From Leptogorgia sarmentosa (taxonomy: Eukaryota), in assembly GCA_964658305.1 (NCBI GenBank), contig OZ210885.1, positions 6,324,001 to 6,388,000 on the forward strand: DNA of 64,000 nucleotides, written 5' to 3'. Below the pieces are notes generated by a model. It saw only the letters and a program-made list of their open reading frames with translations. It had not been told where the DNA came from and did no database searches. Of the stretch, positions 45,562 to 58,706 are shown one piece after another; position 1 is the stretch's first letter, and each line of letters opens with the position of its first letter. The translations under genes were made by a program, and so were the position numbers.

Positions 45562-45849
45562 CCACCATTGGCTGCAGCAGAATAAGCCAACCATGGATAA
45601 CGCTTTAGCCATCCATACTGAAAACGTCTACCAGAGGAGTTGTCCGGGGGAAAATTGTAAGTGGATTCAGGTTTCCAAATGTTTGTTAAACGAGGAATTT
45701 GCGTGAAAAAAGAGGAATTTGCGTGAAAATATATTAATTGCGAATATTTCGACACAAACTATTAATATTTATATACCAGCCATATTTGGAAAAATATGAC
45801 CATATCTTCAGATACGCTCGATACCCCCTGGATCCGCCCCTGAGTACTG

Positions 45850-47055
45850 CTGTTGATGAACTTGATGATTTGCCTGATGATTTTACGATGGGTGCTAACA
45901 GTGATGAGCATGTATCACATTATGCAAATGATGAGTCTCTAAAAGATCTACTGTCAAACTGGGCAAGCACTCATCTTCAGCAAGGGGAGCAAATACGAAT
46001 GAAAGTTTGTCAGAAATTTGTTTGGCAAGATGTTCTTTTGAAACTTGACAGACTTGAAGAAGGCAGTCATAACAAATCCATTAAAGTACAATTTGTTGGG
46101 GAACGATCTGTAGACCAATGAGGGGGGGGGGGGGAATGAGAACTTTTTACTCTTGTTAATCAACATGTTGAAATGACCCTTGTGGCAAATGAAGTCTTTC
46201 GACATAATGTTCCAGCATTAGAAAAGAAAGAATTCTTACGATTCAGGCAGCTCACAGCATTGGGACTATTACAAGGTTCCCCTGGAGCTAAATTTTTTTG
46301 TCCTAGTGTGATAAATTATATCCTTTATGGAACATTAGAGAAATGCACACCAACCATTGATGAAATACCATGTGGGGAAATTAAAAGTTCTATGGAAAAC
46401 CTTGCAAGACTCACTGATGAAGAAGCTTTTAAAGAGCAGGCCTCATTCCAGTGCAGTTTTAGATTTGATGCTGGGTATTCAAAGCCATTTGTAACTATCA
46501 CAGAAAGATGAGTTTTTCAGATGTATTGCATTGCACCATGTAGTTCTAGTGAGTCTTACTGAGCTAGAGCAGTTTATAAGTGGTCTTAAAAATTGTAATG
46601 TCTTAGAGATTATTCGTACCAATCCAGATGCATTTAGAATACTGTTTGAGCCTTCACATCAGCTTATAGCTGAAATAGTAGATGACGTTTGACCCGGTAT
46701 TCAGTCCTGTTGTTAGTACAGCATTTGTAAAGGAGCAGGCTGTTATGTTTAATTTTAACCAGTTACTTGAAGGCATAGAGCATGGTAAAGTTAGTGTTGA
46801 TGTTGATGACCAGAATTTCACTTTCAGCCTTGGTGATATTTTGCAGTTTGTTACAGGTTCTAGAGATGTTCCTGCAATAGGTTTTATACCACAACCCAGT
46901 ATTATATTTCTCCATGGAGATAATGCTAATGCAAAGTTGTCAGCAAACACTTGTGCAAACATTTTGAGATTCCCTGTTAGTGAAAAATTGCTTATATATC
47001 CTGATTTTAAAGAAGACATTTGTATTGTAAACTCTCCTGGTTTGGTAATCCATAA
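45850..47055 (+). pseudogene. G2E3-like HECT E3 ligase domain, frameshifted
   Basis: VQFVGE..VDQ*GG, LLQGSPG, DILQFVTGS..VPAIGF, ANTCANILRFP (catalytic Cys motif). Confidence 0.8.
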
Positions 47056-47329
47056 CTACGGGATAAGATCATTATTGTTATATACGTTTTGTTTTACATA
47101 GTTGTTAGTGTTATTTCATATGGGATGATAAAAAAATAATGCCATATCCCTTTAATCTCACAATGTAGCAATACATTTACATGCAAGACATTGTATATAC
47201 TTATATTGTTTCTTGTTAATGTTGATTTATATTAGATATTACATTTATATTGTTTTGGGAACTTTTTGTCATACTTATTGTCATTGTATTCATTGGCATT
47301 GGTTGTTAATAATATTTAAGGTTGCCCTT

Positions 47330-48439
47330 CCGCAGCTCTCGTTAATACCCGGTATAAATTGAGACAGTCTCTCCAAGTAGTAGAACGAGCAATGTGATTT
47401 GGTAGAGTACTGCTTATTTCGTTGAAATATTGAAAATATATATTCCGATTTTCGTCAAAACAAGTTGCTGCTTCATATGAAATAGGTCTTCAGCTGTAAC
47501 TTCATCTTTATAATCAGCAATGTTAAAACTTTCAGGAAGAAAAACATTTCATCAGGAATGCCAGCTTGTGTGTGATGGCATGATCTAATGTAGTGCATGT
47601 TCCATCTGTCTCGTACATTGTCGAGTTCACTTTGAATTAATTTTTGAAAGGTGAAATATATGCACTGCTTTTGTATTGATTAGTGATTGACAACCCATAG
47701 CGGCGAGCCTTTTCTCTGGATTCCATGAACACTGAATTCCTGTCAAGATTGTCTGTTCGGCACAATTTTGGACATTCATCGATCGTTTTAACTACTTATA
47801 GATAATATTGCGCTATAAAATTTGGATTATTATTTGTTGTACCAACTTTCAACCATATCACTCGTCTACTGTAACCGTCAATACAACCATGTATGGGAAA
47901 TCCGTAATGTTTAAGCTTGTCATAGCCATCGCGTGCCATGAAAAATTCGGACCTTCACTGAAAAAATGCTCAACGTCTCAAATAGCGTTGCCTCCTCTCC
48001 TCTGACCCTTCGGGATCAATTTTGCGAACTAGTCTCTGCACTAGAGATCTTGGGTGCGATATTTAGTACGAATAGTTTGCCAAATCAGTGTGTATCCTAC
48101 GGAATTACCTGCGCCATCCATCTCGGTTTCAATTTGTCTTCTCACCTCCAATTCATCAATATTCCTGTTCTTCTTTCGAGCCTGTATTCATTAAGCCGAT
48201 TTAGCAGTGTCAGATAAGAAATGTCAATATCGTGAAATTTAGATAAAAAAAATCATTATTGAATTGTACCGGAAACCTCTTTCAAAGTAGAATCGAATTG
48301 CTTCTTCTTCATTCAAATTGTTTCTAATAGATGGTGCAATGCCTGGAATGCTATTGACAGTAATTCTCTCACTACAACAGGTACAAAAGTTAAAATGTTC
48401 CTCAAAATGTTCTCCACAATTATCGCAAATCATAATCAT
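47330..48439 (-). pseudogene. Integrase-core (IS3EU/IS481-like) transposase, heavily degraded
   Basis: AIRFYFERGFRY, GPNFSWH, DGYDKLKHYGFPIHGCIDGYSRRVIWLKV..NN.P. Confidence 0.75.
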
Positions 48440-49718
48440 GTGCTAAATCTTTTAATTGTGCAGTACTGCCGGTATCAAATTCACGCAATACATAAAATAT
48501 AGACCACATGCCCAATGTGTATGATCCCGGGCACTTAGCCTACCTTGTGTTTTGAGAATTTGTTAGTGTTTTCAATCTTTGGGGTTGTGTTTTGAGAATT
48601 TGTTAGTGTTTTGCACTTGTGGGCTACCGTAATATATAGAAAAAATTCCTATTACATTTTCTCAGGACAAGTAAGTGAGAACTTGATGAACTTTCATGAA
48701 TTTGATCAACCGAGCAGAAAATTATATTTACACATATGACAACACCCAGTGTAAACAAGGTCAGAAGACTGGCACTAGAAACTGACAGGAATGTTCAGTG
48801 GCAACAAAAACAGGATTTTGTAAAGTTCTTTCTAGGACTACGCTTCACATCAAATAAAAAACTATATATTTACTCTTCGGTTACATGAATTTTTATTACC
48901 ATGATTATTTACCAAAAGTCAATGTAATACTTGTCATATTTTTTAGTCAGTTTTGACTAAAGAAAGTGCATCTAATGTATTGTCGATATTTCTTCATGCC
49001 CGTTAATGTTTGTCCCCATAAAACGTTATAGATATTCTTATATTTGGTAGATTACATAAGCCAGTACATTCCGCAACAAAAAAACGTTAAAAAATGTTAA
49101 TTTCGTTCCTGAAATTTCAGCTGTTGATGTGCAAAGAAAGCAAAAATGTTTGGAGACGCCCCTATATCCTCCCTGTAATGCACTTGTCAATTGTAACCCC
49201 CACCCCCCCAACCTCGGGATATGGTGGGGGAATGTGGGGGATTTTTCCCGTTTTGAAACATTTTTAAGCCCGTATTGGTGGTGGTTTTTCTCGTTATGGT
49301 TCCCCGACCTCAAAAACGGCCGAGTAACCCAAAAAAGCGCCTGGGCACGAGCTCGCAATTTATGGAATTATGCATAAATTATGCATTGAGTTATGCATAA
49401 ATTATGCATTGAATATGATGCTCTTTTAGTCTTTTTATACTGTTCTCATTTCGGACTATACAGTTCCCAAATTTTGTCGTAACAAAATCAACGTTTTTAT
49501 AGACCATCCTTTTTTTAAAGTATTTTTTTCCACATTATACCATTATAAAAGGTAAGAACACAATGTGTCTGTGGAATTTTTTGCACTTTAACATTGAAAT
49601 ACTGTCAAATTTGTTTGGGTCATGACCTCTTAATTTTAATATTTGCATTCATGTAATCTTTTATAAATACTCGCAACAGTGCGTCATCATCACGAGGGAA
49701 ACTATAATTGAAATATTC

Positions 49719-51823
49719 ATGAAACCTATGAAGGTATGGTCTTCGGACCGGACGCAGAAAAAATTCCTGGCTGCAAATACACTCTCTGATGTGCTTTCCA
49801 AAGGTAAGACCTACAATCTTGGACAAAACTAGTTGAGACCTGGTATAATAATCATGCCTGATTTTCGGGTAACCCCTCTCCCCCGGTTTGAGAGCTTATT
49901 GTTGCCACTCACTTTCAGCGGCCCTGCCCCTGAAACCATAAATACATTTTTGTATGTTCTGTAGGTTCACAGAAACTTGGTATAGACAATCCAGAAAGAG
50001 TGGTACTGGAGGAAGATGGGACAGAGGTGGATGAAGATGTTTTTGAGTTCCTAGAGAATGGAACAACGTTAATGATTTTGTGTACAGGGGAGGAATGGGC
50101 AAAACATGTTGAAGGTATATCTTTTAATATATGTACAGTACCATATGTATATATATATTGCAACATTAATATAAAAATACCACGAATTAAAGCAAAATAT
50201 AATATATATAGCCTAAATGATTATTTAAATTTTCGGTTGCATGCCACAACCTTCGTATATATTTGTTTACATTATGCTTTTGTAATGTGTCTAAAATTAA
50301 TTGTTTTTTACTGTCATTATGCAATGGTGGTGTTCCTAAAGTGTTACATCAATTTATTATATAAGTTGATCAATTCATTTGCTCAAAAATTGCTCAACTT
50401 CCTGTTATTAGCGTACTTGTTCCCAATTGGTCAATCAGTCACTGAAATGAAATGCCATTGGTAACCAAAGGCATTTCATTTCAGTGACTGATTGACCAAT
50501 GTTCACACACAGAAGAAGTTGATCAATTTTCAATGAATGAATTGATAAATTTTAGATATTTAGGAACACTTCCATTGCAACAACAGTGAAGATATTTATA
50601 AATCAGCTTTGCAATGATGTTTTGTTTATTATTTTTGGTTTTTTAGAGATATGCATAACACCCTTGTTCATTTGTAAAATGAAATAATTCACATAAAAAG
50701 TGTTTTGAAACAGTTATTTTAATGTGTACTTGTTATTTCCTTGCATTTTGAAGGAACTGTACCTCCTGCACCTACATCTACAGGAAAGGAGCTCCATCCC
50801 GTGGAAATAATTCCATCCGCTAAAGCTAAACTAAAGTGTACCCAGCGTACATTAACAAGTGATTTATCAAAGCTTGGACCAGCTATTCAGGTACATATAC
50901 AGTACGATATGTTCAGGCATTTGCAAGTATATAATTCAAGTACCAAAGATTTGTACTCAATTCAATAAAAGGATTAACCATTTTGGCAGTGATGGATTCC
51001 CCAGTATTCATTTAGCTGGTAATCTCTGCAAATGAGGTATTTTTTATTTGTTTTCAACGTAATTAAGAGCTGCATTCTCATTATTCTGCATTTCATTGAC
51101 ATACAGATTGATGAGACAGAAATTAATGCTAACCAAATGGAAGTGACAGTTCCTACAATTGAACTCCTGGAACAAAGCAAGATATATCATTCTGAAACGC
51201 TAAATCCTTATCAAAGTGCCATCAATAAAGCAGCTTATGAAATTTGTTCTGAAAATCCAATGTTAATGAAGCAAAAAGGCATTCTACTTGAGGCAGCACG
51301 TAAAAAAGTAAATGCAGATGGCTACCAGTATGCAAAAAAATCATCCCGATCAAAAGTTTTTGGAACATCTGCGCAGGCAGGTTCAAATGCTCCTACAGCA
51401 AAGAAGTGTCGTTTGTCAACAGAGATAAGGAGTAACAGAATCCAAGAATGTCAAGAAGATCTTAAAAACATTGAACTTCAATTAAAATTTGCAGAGCGAG
51501 CCCAAGAAAAATTTGCCAACATACACCAATATCAGTCAGCCATTGGTGCTCTTAAAGAAATCAAAGAAATGAAAGAAAAGAGGCGAGATATACTTACTGA
51601 ATTAGGTAGTCTCCAAAAGAAAGAAGCTAAATCTTTATGTTACAAAAACAAGAGATCTCATAAACAACAGTCATTTACACAAGATACAACTGCCTCGAAT
51701 GGAACAATTGATTCATATTTTCGGGATACAAGTACACCTTCCAATGGCTCGGATACCAGTAACGCAGATGAGTCAAGTGTGGAAAATAGTGAAGCTGATA
51801 ACCCGCCTTTTTTAGAAATATGA
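49719..51823 (+). CDS. ORF1: CIDE-N domain plus basic/coiled-coil protein, 362 aa (exons 49719-49803, 49965-50114, 50754-50890, 51107-51823)
   Basis: MKVWSSDRTQKKFLAANTLSDVLSKG|SQKLGI...VVLEEDGTEVDEDVFEFLENGTTLMILCTGEEW matches the CIDE-N pattern. All GT-AG junctions are in frame. Confidence 0.8.
50305..50595. repeat. Foldback palindrome in intron 2 of ORF1
   Basis: 50426-50500 is a 75-bp palindrome with one mismatch; imperfect arms extend outward. Confidence 0.9.
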
Positions 51824-54800
51824 ACTCAGTGGTCGTTGAGCAATTTACTGAGAATACCGTTGAAACAGACATTACTAAAACTAAACATGTCTCAGAGAAT
51901 ACATTTTATCAGGAGAAACTGAAAACGTATACACTTTTTAAAGCGAGTGGTGTTGGAAAAGATTACAAAATAACAGATGGAATTTATGTTTCACCTCTGA
52001 ACAATTTTACTTTGGATGATTTTGTTATAGTTAGACAATTGTTTTGTTCTGGCAGGCATACCAACGGGTGCTTGGAATGTTCACGTTTGTTAGAATTTGC
52101 CAGGTTGGTAAAAGATGGCGGAATTATAGAATTTGCTGCAACATATCGAACAATTTATCCTCATTTAGTGTACAAGAGCGATTTGGCAGTGAGAAAAATG
52201 ATGCAAGCACCTTTATGCGTGTTCAAAATGGCCACAATGGGTCACGGAAGCGAGAAATTGTATGTTACTGAGAAGATTGCTAGTGTAGATTACAGCTCTT
52301 TCATAACACTTACAAAAAAAGTGTGGCAAACACAGAAACCCAGTACTACTTTAGACAAAACCGCTCTAAAAGAACTTTGTAATTTGGCAAGCTCAGAGAA
52401 AGACAAGCTTCTTATTAAATATGTTTGTTGTAAATCTCAGAATTTGTCAATGAACAAAGCACGGCAACTGTACGGATTCTGGAACTTCAATCAACAAAAA
52501 GAGAAGATTAACAATGCTTTGCTTGAAATGAGAGAGATCCACGATGTTATTGAAGAACTTGCGGCAATAAAAGATACAGCGGTCTTGCAAGGGTTTGGAA
52601 TATGTGTGGAAGATGAACATTCAAGCAGTGAATCAGAATGTTCGTTGTCAGATGCAGAAAACTCAGAGATTGAATGGATATCTGAAGAAGAGAAAGACCA
52701 AACAACTCCTTCACGACTGCCGTCAGATGATCAGCTATTGTCTATGTTGAGAAACACTAACTTTAACTGGTTTGCTTTTATAACCGAAGTAAAAATGCTT
52801 TTACCAAACAATAGCGAGAATACATTGTTGGAATCCCTGGAAGAATTTTCGGGTCGACTTTCTGTTTTAAATGTGTCTGCCGAAGATCAGTTAAAAATTG
52901 AAACATCAAGACAAGCTTACTTCGCACTTGAAAAAGACAAAGCTATTCATGAATCATTGTCAGATGAGGACGAGACTAGTTCTAGAGATATTTCGGAAGC
53001 AGTTAGAAAACGAAGAATAATGTACAGAAGAAAACACGTGCGACAAAAAGCGAAAAGGATGGCTGAAGCACGTCTACTAAAAAGAAAACTGCCGAAGCGT
53101 GTATCCCGTATTTTGAAGAAATTTCCGAACATTGGAAAGGACGTTGAAGAGTTTGTAAGTGGAAAAAGAGTAGGGGCTGATGCGTGGCGTAGGACTGGGG
53201 TGCTCACCTTTGATGGAAATATAAAGCAGGGACCAAAAGTGACATACAAGGGTATCCAAAATCATCTACAAACAAAATATGGAATAAAGATCTCATATGG
53301 GACTGTCGTGCAGCTTTCAGTCATAAGAAATAAAAGGCGTCTATCGGCAAAGAGGTATCGTGGTGTCGCACGTATCACCTGTAGAAGAGCAAGAAAAGGA
53401 TTTTCCATAAAAATGAATCCTGATGCTCATTGGAATACCGCTATGTACAGGAGTTTGGATTACCTTCAATTAAAAAATGGCACAGAGCAACTGGTTTTAA
53501 ATCGAGATGATGCTGCAGGGTTTAGATTAGATACAACTTTTACGCATAAGCAACACAAGGGCGTTCAGCTGTTGGACAGCCACGATCTAACCTCTAGAAC
53601 TGACTACATGAACAAGTATACTTCCGTTTTGCAAACGACATCGTATCTTTTTCCGTCAACGTCGTCAACTCCTCCAACGTGTATTGGTGTAATTAAGCCA
53701 CATGTAATTTTTGAGAAGAATCCAAGTCAACATATGGCAGATCTTAACATGCTGGCAAAACAAGAACAGAACACAGCAGTGTTTAACCGATTGTCTGACG
53801 GGCAACGAAAAGATATATGGTACGTTCGCGTTGATGGAAGCAGTGATGAAGGCCCTGTACACAAAGAAGTGCAATTCCTGTGGACGGAAAAACATGTCAT
53901 GGACAATCACTCATGCACTGTGGTGACAACAAGGCACTCGGGTGGATCCTATCTCAACTCTGTGGAACTAATGAACGGTTGCCTCTCCGTGGCACACAAC
54001 AATTGCTTTATACCGTCAACACTTGGTGGACCAGTTGAAGATGAAAATGGGATAAACACCGAACAACTTAAACGTAATCTAGATTTGGCAGCAGATGTGT
54101 ATATTTCCAGGGTTAATGGTGCTCCATGTTGTGGCACCACAGTTCAGTTATGTAAAGGAAACCGAAGTGATTGCGCACAGAAATTATTGGGAAGAAGACA
54201 AAAACTTTTGACATTCTTGCACGGAAAGGCGATCGAAAAACAAAAGCTTTTGAAAGATGAGCCTGATATATTCCACTATTTTAGAAAGGTTTGGGATGTT
54301 TTCAATAATCACATGGTACCATCAATCCCAAAGCAATATGCACTTATGTTATTGCCTTGTTTTAAAGAAGGGTGCATCCATCCGCTGTGCAAAACAGGAA
54401 AACCAGCCATTGAACCACATTGCACGTGGTTTCCAAATGGCCCCCCTCTGTCGTATTTCCCACTACCCATTCCTGATGTCGATCGACCTTGGGGTGGCGA
54501 TTGTACCAGCTGTTCGGGTTTTTGTGCAGGACATTATAAAAAACCAGAAGATGCGCGGAAGAGTTATCAGGAAAAAGACAAGACAATCTGCCAAATTAAG
54601 CCTCCATCAGTGACGTTACTAGAACGTTTTGACGAGAGTGTGAAGAAAGGATTTGATTTGCTCGGGGATGAAAATAGGATCAACGAACTTGCAAAACAGG
54701 TGTTATTGACTCCAAATGAGGTGAAAATGTGGCTAAAACATCTAAAAGCAATTAAGTTAAGGAGGAAAGAGGGAGCGAAAAAAGCGGCTGCGACGAGAGC

Positions 54801-55484
54801 TGCTAAAAAAGGTATAAACTTTTTTCTAATTTGTATTGTTTACACAATCAACTAATATTAGGTATTATTTATCTTATAGCCTTACATGCACAAAATAACT
54901 CGGCAACACCTGCAAATGATAGAGAATCTTCGGCAGCAAATTGTCCATGCGGTCTGCCTGACAATGAAGACAATATGATTGCTTGTGAAAATCCAAAGTG
55001 TGATGTTGAGTGGTATCACATTTCTTGCGTTGGGCTCGATGAACTGGGGGATACAGATTTAGAGAATTTGGAGTGGTATTGTCCAGCATGTGAAGGTATG
55101 TGTGAGTCATGTAATGATTCTATCGTAGTACCTTTATTTAGGGTGTCATATACCTTGCATTGTTTTTTTATTTGGTATACTGTACAGTACTAGTCTTTGA
55201 AACAATTACATATTTACAGTAAATATGTATATAATTAGCTCTCTTTATGTATGTAATTAGCTCTCTGCATTTCAATGCTAACAGATAATGAATCCTCAAA
55301 CGACTCAGACAATGAAGACAGCTGTCACTGCGGGAGACCAAACAGTGCGGAGGAGATGATTGGGTGCGATGGTGATGATTGTGAGATAAAATGGTACCAT
55401 TTCAGTTGTGCTGGATTAACTGCAGAAACAGTTCCAGATGGAGAATGGTTGTGTCCAATGTGTTCAAACATGCTAACCAGCTAA
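51820..55484 (+). CDS. ORF2: Zator-like DD43E transposase plus two ING-type PHD fingers, 1135 aa (exons 51820-54811, 54880-55095, 55285-55484)
   Basis: [33 protein letters not shown](43 aa)-SYLNSVE. PHDs CPC...[17 protein letters not shown]...WYCPAC and CHC...[15 protein letters not shown]...WLCPMC. Both introns are phase 1 and keep frame. Confidence 0.8.
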
Positions 55485-56619
55485 CATTGTTAATATTGAA
55501 TTTTTATAATTAACTAATTTGGTTATTTGTATGCCTAGTATATAGCATGGATACTTAAATAAATGGGTAAGAAACTAATGTCATGTGTGATATTTTCAGG
55601 GTAGTGGTTGGTTTAGGTGGTGTTACTGACGTAACAACCTTGTTGAAACCTTGTTGACAATCATGCCGTCACAAAATGTCTAAATATCTCACGTTTTTAC
55701 AGCAATACAGTTAAAATTGATAGTCAAACAACTATGAACATTACAGTACCATTGTACAGTACAATATCTTGATATTATTACTCCTTTTGGACGCCATTTT
55801 CTTCACAAAACAATGTATGCACTTCGATTCTCAATACAGCTACTTAAACTCGAAAAAATGGAAGATCGGCAAAAACTTCAGAGTCTAAACCTGAACAGAA
55901 ATCAAAGACTTGTGACGTCACGAGACGCAACCTAGGTTCAAACTGCTGATGTCATCAGTTTCCTATCCATTTTTTTATGGTTATAGCATAAGCTGTTTAT
56001 GTATTTCGAGTTAAAAGACTTTTCAATCCAATTTTGGAATTTATATGTTGTTAATGTTATTAAAAAGGTGAATGATTGTCTAATTATTTCCCCAATGGGG
56101 TGGGAGAATAGTCAATTCACTCATCCCTATAGGGTGGGGGTATTTAAAGTTATGGTAGCATGAAAAATCTATGTCCCCACCATATCCCGAGGTTGGGGGG
56201 GTGGGGGATACAATTGACAAGTGCATAAGTCATCTGTCCAATCATATGTATTAAAAGTTACTTGATGACATATAGTGTCATTGAGAGTTTACTTTGATCA
56301 GAACCATATATGAACTTGAAGGGATTCTAACACTACATGCATTACCAAGTGGCATTACCCCAGGTTGGAACACAATCAATCTTTTGAATGATGAAAATGT
56401 AAATATTGTATATAATTTCCATATTTTATAAGTTAGCACATGAGGCAGAACAACCAAAAAAGTCACCATGTTGCCGTACATGTAAAAACCCAATGAAGGG
56501 ACATCTGCAAGGTCATTGTGCATGGAGAAATTCCATAGCATTGTTGCAAATAATATTATCATTCATATAACAAAATATATTTTACATGTATTAGAAAACC
56601 AAAAAATTCATTAATCTAC

Positions 56620-57569: not shown

Positions 57570-58383
57570 TCAACATACAAGCGACGCATATATTAGGCCT
57601 TAATACACCGTTAAAATTGTGTGCTATAATGCACATCTCATTAATTATGCTTGGAAGTAATTTAATTCATGCTGCTTAAGTTTTGGAAATTTAAACAGTC
57701 TATTGGAAAACAAAGAGATAAATTAGGGGAAAAAATGAAAAGCACAAAAGATAATATAAATGCACCCTTTCACTAGTTCTACAATTAATAGATAGATGTT
57801 GTAACCCTCAGCTCAATGTGGAGTGTTGAATGTTTTACATGCAACAAAATGGTCAATTACTCGGTCAACACACGCAGCAAAAAAACTGGAAAGATGACAT
57901 CACCTGAGTTTTTGCTCCTATTCTGAAACACTACAAGGATAGAATTGAATGAAACGTCAAGAATACGGCCACAGCCTGCAGAAACTGTGTTTTGAACGTA
58001 TCCCGTCCAGTGGGACGCGGGATATCTATCAGCAGCCATCATATAAATATCAGCACAGTTTAAAGGGAGCGTCCAGAAACTAGTAAACATGCCAATTATT
58101 GCGGTAAAATACGAGGAAATCCTGTGAATTTTGCATTTCAACCACTTCAGGCTCAAATGTGGTTGTCTGATAGGCTATATTTTCTGAATTTTTGCAACAT
58201 TTTGCAAAAACAACTTTACAGCACAATGGGGATGGGCAGAACAATAACTACTGCATTAACTTTAACAGCATCATAAGCATACGAAAGCTTCATAGGCTTA
58301 ACATGGTTCATAATACACAAACTGGGAACCATAATTTGCCATTTCATTATACGTGCCCGATGTTGTACAGTGTCTATCCTCAC

Positions 58384-58470
58384 CTTATTCTTCGCGTCCA
58401 GTTGGGCCCCTTTCTCTATCAGGCATTTCACAAGGTCAACATGTCCTCTTGACGTCTGTCCGACGTCAAA
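58384..58470 (-). other. Isolated ankyrin-repeat exon
   Basis: AG/GT-bounded, phase 0, RGHVDLVKCLIEKGAQLDAKNK. Confidence 0.55.
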
Positions 58471-58653
58471 CTAAAAACGAACATATGACTAATCAATGAT
58501 CACTTTAAAGGTAAAGTTTGTAGTTTACACCACATAATTTTATTAAAGCTTTTGATCTGTAAGCCCGGATCGTCACCAGTGCCAATAATATCTTGTAAGA
58601 TATTATAATATTATAGAATATTATATTATATCCCCAATAATATCTTATAAGAT

Positions 58654-58706
58654 ATTATTGGCACTGATGAAGATCCAAGCTTACAGATCGAAAGCTTTGC
58701 AATAAT
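58654..58706 (+). ncRNA. Minimal type-I hammerhead ribozyme motif (Penelope-like pseudo-LTR)
   Basis: CTGATGA (58664-58670), GATC/GATC helix II, GAAA, palindromic AAAGCTTT helix III, ATTATTGGCA/TGCAATAAT helix I. Confidence 0.65.

Follow-up and report, generated by a model that had tools for sequence, protein, structure and literature searches.

The 64,000-nucleotide stretch of the Leptogorgia sarmentosa (Eukaryota) assembly GCA_964658305.1 analyzed here (contig OZ210885.1, positions 6,324,001 to 6,388,000 of the forward strand; hereafter the window, with positions counted from its first letter) contains a DNA transposon of 7,047 bp with terminal inverted repeats (TIRs) at 49179-56225. Its two open reading frames, ORF1 with a CIDE-N domain and ORF2 with the transposase core, overlap in different frames. 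Comparison of this overlap with homologous junctions makes it very probable that the element produces its transposase by a -1 ribosomal frameshift at the slippery site U_UUU_UUA near the end of ORF1. The site and its surroundings (51799-51852) lie inside the element. A programmed -1 frameshift had been proposed in a preliminary description of this DNA, and the homologues support that reading, in which the shift itself is deduced from sequence.

The end of ORF1 reads CCT TTT TTA GAA ATA TGA, with the stop codon at 51821-51823, which places the heptamer T_TTT_TTA (51808-51814, + strand) in the X-XXY-YYZ phase of ORF1, as the preliminary description had stated. An overlapping heptamer, G_CCT_TTT (51805-51811), supplies the U_UUU that is found across the family. 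ORF2 is in the -1 frame; a TAA at 51799-51801 closes it upstream, and its 1017 open codons start at 51802. The overlap, previously put at about 22 nt, is indeed 22 nt long. An ATG (51820-51822) overlaps the ORF1 stop as ATGA, and TTTTTTAG ends at 51815. Finally, a 3' stem-loop with an 8-bp stem lies 10 nt past the heptamer (51825-51852, + strand), and it is weak in the window copy. By itself this hairpin is no better than chance, and the significance of the proposal rests on the homologues rather than on the window.

We found at least 74 homologous loci in metagenomes and 3 in a genome collection (all locus counts are among the matches listed). The N-terminal part of ORF2 is included in 38 of these 77 loci, and 30 of the 38 are also preceded by a region homologous to ORF1, the remaining ones having at most 412 bases of upstream sequence (8 loci). 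ORF1 reaches the open ORF2 frame in 18 of the 30 loci, and in all 18 the relation is -1, with an overlap of 10-61 nt. A continuous ORF1-ORF2 frame, which the preliminary description had named as an observation that would refute its reading, was found in none of the 30 loci with both ORFs. Removal of three duplicates (L004, L024, and L054, of L003, L022, and L017, respectively) left 15 homologues, which make 16 junctions with the window. These elements are highly diverged, with 13-58% amino acid identity in the N-terminal part of ORF2 (median 26%). A tree of these 16 sequences has little resolution (3 of 13 branches starred), and the history of the heptamers was not read from it. The poorly conserved ORF1 linker is open for 40-184 codons up to the site in all 15 homologues, and the -1 relation is kept although the length of the linker varies widely.

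The slippery site is also conserved. Within the overlap, each of the 16 junctions carries an in-frame NNT-TTT, where 0.56 would be expected from the background (85 of 14,802 dicodons). The heptamer named beforehand, T_TTT_TTA, recurs in 6 of the 15 homologues (7 of 16 with the window), and the remaining ones are G_GAT_TTT (5), A_AAT_TTT (2), A_CAT_TTT (1), and G_TCT_TTT (1), in T runs of T4 to T7. Hence, 14 of the 16 are U_UUU_UUA, A_AAU_UUU, or G_GAU_UUU, and the other two have only U_UUU. Selection for a terminal phenylalanine plus codon bias alone would give the observed codon choice with a probability of 1.2e-7. The ORF1 stop directly follows the heptamer in 8 of 16 junctions and comes within two codons in 14 of 16. 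As in cassettes for -1 programmed ribosomal frameshifting (PRF), there are a conserved -1 ORF overlap (the 18 loci and the window) and a heptamer in X_XXY_YYZ phase (14 of 16); a 3' structure 5-10 nt downstream is present for the family, being clear in roughly half of the junctions, and is weak and non-significant in the window copy.

The evidence for this structure comes from folding and from co-variation. In the 60 nt 3' of the site the mean minimum free energy (MFE) is -16.0 kcal/mol for the 16 junctions and -8.3 kcal/mol for 159 ORF2 control windows, and z is below -2 in 7 of 16 junctions and in none of the 159 controls. Stem sequences differ between elements, and the pairing of a 5' arm is stronger with the 3' region of its own element (-15.5 kcal/mol) than with those of other elements (-8.3 kcal/mol; 16 sites). 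None of 100,000 permutations matched this co-variation of the arms, the own partner ranks first in 8 of 16 sites, and the same test at four control offsets gave p values of 0.91, 0.41, 0.91, and 0.047. These figures are from the unselected 16-site test; a 26-site test and an MFE profile were set aside, since 10 of the sites had been picked by their fold. L001 folds well only in windows of 70-100 nt, and the strong short stems are mostly associated with imperfect heptamers. A search of Rfam with 51500-52200 returned only four chance-level matches, far below gathering scores.

A number of observations weigh against a frameshift. The hairpin of the window copy folds as the preliminary description had it, but its energy (-6.7 to -11.5 kcal/mol) does not stand out from shuffled sequences in any of four 3' windows (z of 0.00 to -1.81; -0.36, the same as shuffles, in the 60-nt window). 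Stems are weak in L008, L009, L010, L011, and L016 as well as in the window, and the stem is weak at 60 nt in 6 of the 7 elements with T_TTT_TTA. Two of the heptamers, A_CAT_TTT and G_TCT_TTT, permit only poor re-pairing in the P site, and the NNT-TTT pattern was defined after the junctions had been viewed. The window copy also keeps two escape routes, the ATGA overlap and TTTTTTAG. Finally, the ORF1 stop precedes the opening of ORF2 in 12 of the 30 loci. We read these 12 as decayed copies, and 6 of the 11 examined keep the T run followed by a stem of -14 kcal/mol or better. In L075, this T-run/stem site does not fit the phase of the frame downstream. As for the window, the stem-loop that would stimulate the shift may have been weakened, because the contigs of three runs with other organism labels (X6, X17, and X18) have a C at 51832 that adds an inner 5-bp stem, as judged by inspection only.

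Fused forms of the two ORFs do occur among proteins. Only 2 of the 269 proteins fetched carry ORF1 homology, P0047 and P0127, both unnamed. P0047 (1,431 aa, a singleton cluster) has ORF1 and ORF2 in one frame, and its join, D-F-S-V-S-P, matches the -1 frame text past the site in L003 and L006, that is, the predicted trans-frame product. P0127 corresponds to a 173-nt deletion with ends other than GT-AG, seen in X6 (joint 51710-51884) and present on two long contigs. These two proteins show that fused forms arise, which does not imply that they are active. Searches for longer fused proteins bearing ORF1, with a single sequence and with an alignment, found none, yet they also missed P0047, and this null result is weak evidence for that reason. 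In the close relative lacking 51711-51883, ORF1 and ORF2 are in frame and the slippery site is gone (X6 joint; P0127 and P0270, 363 aa).

The homopolymer at the site raises the question of whether the gene is in fact continuous, with a sequencing error or a lesion in this single copy, as P0047 and the fusion by deletion in the close relative could suggest. The run of six T is real, because the same run occurs in the contigs of five runs: a 1,648-nt contig of X1 (depth 206) matches 50471-52118 at every base and with no gap, a 317-nt contig of X4 covers the site without gaps, and the contigs of X6, X17, and X18 cross it with no indel in the T run, the coding-region indels listed for them, of 6 nt and 3 nt, leaving the reading frame unchanged (X20 covers only 50768-50983, with the junction outside). 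These contigs rule out the assembly error in the T run considered earlier and, with no continuous ORF at any of the 30 loci and P0047 a singleton cluster, largely refute an error or a 1-nt lesion of this copy, whose probability is practically negligible. Slippage of the RNA polymerase on the T run could instead add a U and give the same fusion. The run is conserved, some insertion sequences (IS) use such slippage, including an IS630 of Roseiflexus (PMC5009743, in part), and P0047 would follow from one added T, as deduced from the protein rather than from DNA. However, the runs are only T4-T7, their phase relative to ORF1 codons is fixed, and the stem follows the run on its 3' side, at the spacing of a ribosome footprint; the stimulator described in IS630 is instead 5' of the slip motif (PMC5009743, in part). 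We regard transcriptional slippage as extremely unlikely.

The other two alternatives do without slippage of any kind. In the first one, the T run and the AG would form a 3' splice site, and removal of an intron would take out the tail of ORF1 and link ORF2 to a donor further upstream, the -1 relation then being a matter of intron phase. In favor of this, GT-AG introns are predicted in other parts of the element, AG comes immediately after TTTT in the window and in 4 of the 15 homologues, and 12 of 16 junctions have an AG no more than 5 nt away. Yet neither the position nor the phase of this AG is conserved: the first AG lies 0-33 nt past the run with exon phases 0, 1, and 2, and even the five direct TTTT-AG cases fall in two phases. 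The only phase-compatible GTR donors in the last ORF1 exon, at 51328 and 51406, are not GTRAG and their use would remove the conserved coiled coil, all 15 homologues keep the supposed intron free of stops over 40-184 codons, and splicing explains neither the fixed ORF1 phase of T-TTT nor the co-varying stem. The splice-acceptor alternative of the preliminary description is hence very unlikely. In the second one, ORF2 would be translated separately, by termination-reinitiation at the ATGA or from a transcript of its own, and the named records of ORF2 homologues from corals, anemone, and sea urchins do lack ORF1, in line with the scarcity of ORF1 homology among the proteins fetched. The ATGA overlap is nevertheless seen in only 2 of 16 junctions (the window and L001), which argues against the reinitiation proposed earlier, and in 13 of 15 homologues the first ATG of ORF2 comes 6-107 codons past the start of homology; in L015, L016, L028, and L033, it is beyond the start of a near-invariant C-H-C-C motif. 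Separate initiation would predict neither a fixed frame nor a slippery site, and we give it a very small chance indeed.

Under the preferred reading, -1 ribosomal frameshifting, we infer that one spliced mRNA carries ORF1 and ORF2, and that the slip, its efficiency, and a regulatory role of ORF1 follow a simple scheme. Most ribosomes would stop three codons past the heptamer and yield the 359-aa ORF1 protein (CIDE-N, helical domain, and coiled coil). A minority would slip back one base at U_UUU_UUA, helped by the predicted downstream stem-loop, and make a predicted fusion transposase, extended by the DDE core and two PHD fingers. By analogy with the OrfA of IS3, the ORF1 protein alone may be an oligomerizing or regulatory partner, and the frameshift would ration the transposase. 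Two predicted introns (54812-54879 and 55096-55284) lie a long way downstream of the ORF1 stop, and the unshifted mRNA would for this reason look like a target of nonsense-mediated decay, possibly a second layer of control.

The products are predicted from motif positions in the sequence. ORF1 has four predicted exons on the + strand with consistent GT-AG phases, giving 359 aa: exon 1 (49728-49803) opens with the ATG at 49728 and the start of CIDE-N (E 5.9e-05 in frame), exon 2 (49965-50114) has the rest of CIDE-N (PF02017, E 4.2e-12), exon 3 (50754-50890) is supported by an open frame, splice motifs, and phase, and the last exon (51107-51823) encodes a helical domain, a long coiled-coil hairpin, and the variable linker, and ends with the slippery site and the TGA. 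The match of the helical domain to NCD2 is weak and below the cut-off. CIDE-N is listed as expanded in Hydra (PMC7642931, in part). ORF2 (51802-54811, + strand) encodes in the -1 frame a C-H-C-C motif (near-invariant in the homologue alignment, residues 76-87), a helical region, the DDE core, and C-terminal homeodomain-like helices. Invariant acidic residues in its RNase H-like core are D563/D564, D672, and E716 (counted from the ATG at 51820), with a D672-E716 spacing of 43. Two further predicted exons on the same strand encode PHD finger 1 (54880-55095; PF00628, E 2.5e-06; phase-1 GT-AG sites) and PHD finger 2 with the TAA stop (55285-55484; PF00628, E 3.1e-08). By arithmetic on the predicted exons, the fusion product would have 357 + 1,137 = ~1,494 aa.

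The Pfam scan gave no match for ORF2 itself, apart from the PHD fingers in separate predicted exons, and Foldseek searches with ORF2 and with the last exon of ORF1 gave no match at E<=0.001. The best structural matches of the DDE core are Mos1 (Z 9.0, root-mean-square deviation 3.1, 170 aligned) and Metnase (Z 8.9), in a tie with retroviral integrases, which are within one Z unit (8.3-8.8). The family is large, with 403 proteins found at E<=0.001 and a further search giving 2,378 cluster representatives, and named records of ORF2 homologues come from an octocoral, a stony coral, an anemone, and two sea urchins. Three distant homologues of ORF2 (P0165, P0229, and P0141) have 31-33% identity and a different composition. 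In viral contigs, 30 pattern matches were found, none of them confirmed as a homologue. Three loci (L075, L076, and L077) are on contigs titled as archaeal or bacterial metagenome-assembled genomes, most likely because DNA of animal hosts was binned into them.

The remaining evidence on the nature of the element concerns its ends. The left TIR (49179-49229, + strand) begins with TGCAC and the right one (56175-56225, - strand) ends with GTGCA; the inverted-repeat search paired them over 52 nt with 98% complementarity. Comparison of the flanks reveals a target-site duplication, TAA, at 49176-49178 on the left and 56226-56228 on the right. Five homologous loci are also complete elements, and in all six, including the window, the termini are TGC(A/G)C..G(T/C)GCA and both flanks are TWA, left and right being identical in five. 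TIRs, target-site duplication, and the RNase H-like DDE core are the features of a cut-and-paste DDE transposon.

The IS3 family is prokaryotic and has an rve-type DD35E integrase core. We considered the window element for this family and rejected it on its predicted introns, PHD exons, D672-E716 spacing of 43, and ORF2 lacking any Pfam match. In IS1, IS3, IS5, and IS630, frameshifting fuses the upstream orfA regulator to the catalytic orfB and sets the level of transposition (PMC5009743, in part). The window element would operate in a similar manner but belongs to none of these families. The resemblance is in the layout: an upstream ORF partly overlaps the catalytic one, often at -1 in IS, and in IS the fusion is the transposase. 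Unlike bacterial IS, the window element belongs to a eukaryote, is predicted to have spliceosomal introns, carries CIDE-N and PHD domains, and would yield a fusion of ~1,494 aa, and the sites of its family are of the U-rich type of eukaryotes and viruses (U_UUU_UUA, G_GAU_UUU, and A_AAU_UUU) instead of the A_AAA_AAG of bacterial IS. U_UUU_UUA is the HIV site, which agrees with the preliminary description's comparison to HIV-1 gag-pol, and G_GAU_UUU serves as a shift site in viruses, among them an umbravirus in which a stop is close by (PMC5009743, in part). The family has the same types of heptamer, the short spacer, and the 3' stem-loop of HIV-1 gag-pol and other viral -1 PRF sites; unlike these, it is a nuclear cut-and-paste DNA transposon with TIRs and TWA duplication, and neither a virus nor a retroelement.

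Among eukaryotic transposons, Zator elements have GG..CC termini and a single ORF. The window element differs from them in its TG..CA termini, its two ORFs, and its CIDE-N and PHD domains, and was not filed as Zator, given the termini TGC(A/G)C..G(T/C)GCA and the gene layout. It resembles Zator in the 3-bp TWA target-site duplication, which in amphioxus Zator-1 is TAA/TTA (PMC12905397, in part), and in an ITm-like DDE core (compare PMC7386202 and PMC8533490, both in part). Zator derives from TP36 (PMC7386202, in part), the ISAzo13 branch of IS630-Tc1-mariner (ITm). Atlas matches of the transposase to ISAzo13/TP36 clusters (0.86 and 0.84) are a lead only. A programmed frameshift was reportedly proposed by Doak et al. 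in 2003, going by the title, in the tyrosine recombinase gene of Tec2 of Euplotes, and this shift is said to be +1, typical of Euplotes, without heptamer and stem-loop. One has also been proposed in the TBE DNA transposon of Oxytricha (PMC5009743, in part). The window element resembles Tec2 and TBE as a eukaryotic DNA transposon with a proposed frameshift, and differs from Tec2 in that the shift would be -1 and would yield the DDE transposase itself.

In eukaryotes, -1 frameshifting stimulated by RNA structure has been described chiefly in viruses and retroelements, besides a few derived genes (see the review PMC5009743). Our literature search, which covered neither Repbase Reports nor most subscription journals, so that a prior annotation is possible, found -1 frameshifting described neither for animal DNA transposons nor for this family, and the available main text of PMC5751038, PMC7325037, and bioRxiv 2021.09.26.461848 contains no discussion of frameshifting. 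We lean, with some reserve, towards the broader view that a lineage of animal DNA transposons with introns (TGCAC termini, TWA target, and D-x43-E core), widespread and so far undescribed, depends on a virus-type -1 frameshift, re-creating the bacterial OrfA/OrfAB control in a spliced nuclear mRNA and providing a large natural library of -1 cassettes, where imperfect heptamers have strong stems and U_UUU_UUA is often paired with weak ones. If true, this would extend recoding to the Class II elements of animals and provide such transposons with a brake of their own at the level of translation, as in bacterial IS elements. Gene models of these elements would then be truncated, the named coral, anemone, and urchin records starting within ORF2. 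With many diverged cassettes, a trade-off between heptamer strength, stem stability, and the adjacent stop would become testable.

Some observations concern the surroundings of these genes. The predicted intron 2 of ORF1 contains a nested palindrome (50299-50580), with 37-nt arms that are 97% complementary at 50426-50500 and outer arms at 50320-50340 and 50559-50579. In other runs the depth over this palindrome is high and loose ends are numerous, so that it probably represents a small miniature inverted-repeat transposable element inserted there. Run X12 covers essentially only the ends of the element and the CIDE-N region (49179-50550 and 55370-56225), where the depth of X1 and X6 is also higher, which suggests that non-autonomous derivatives or sister elements share these parts. 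To the left of the element, 45738-48442 has pieces of a HECT-like ORF on the + strand (weak PF00632 match at 46682-47098) and a fragment of an integrase core on the - strand (weak rva_4 match at 47473-47676), probably a decayed second transposon, presumably to be labeled IS3EU. To the right, the regions 58545-58698 and 58219-58470 hold an AT-rich inverted repeat with 62-nt arms and, on the - strand, a fragment of an ankyrin-repeat exon.

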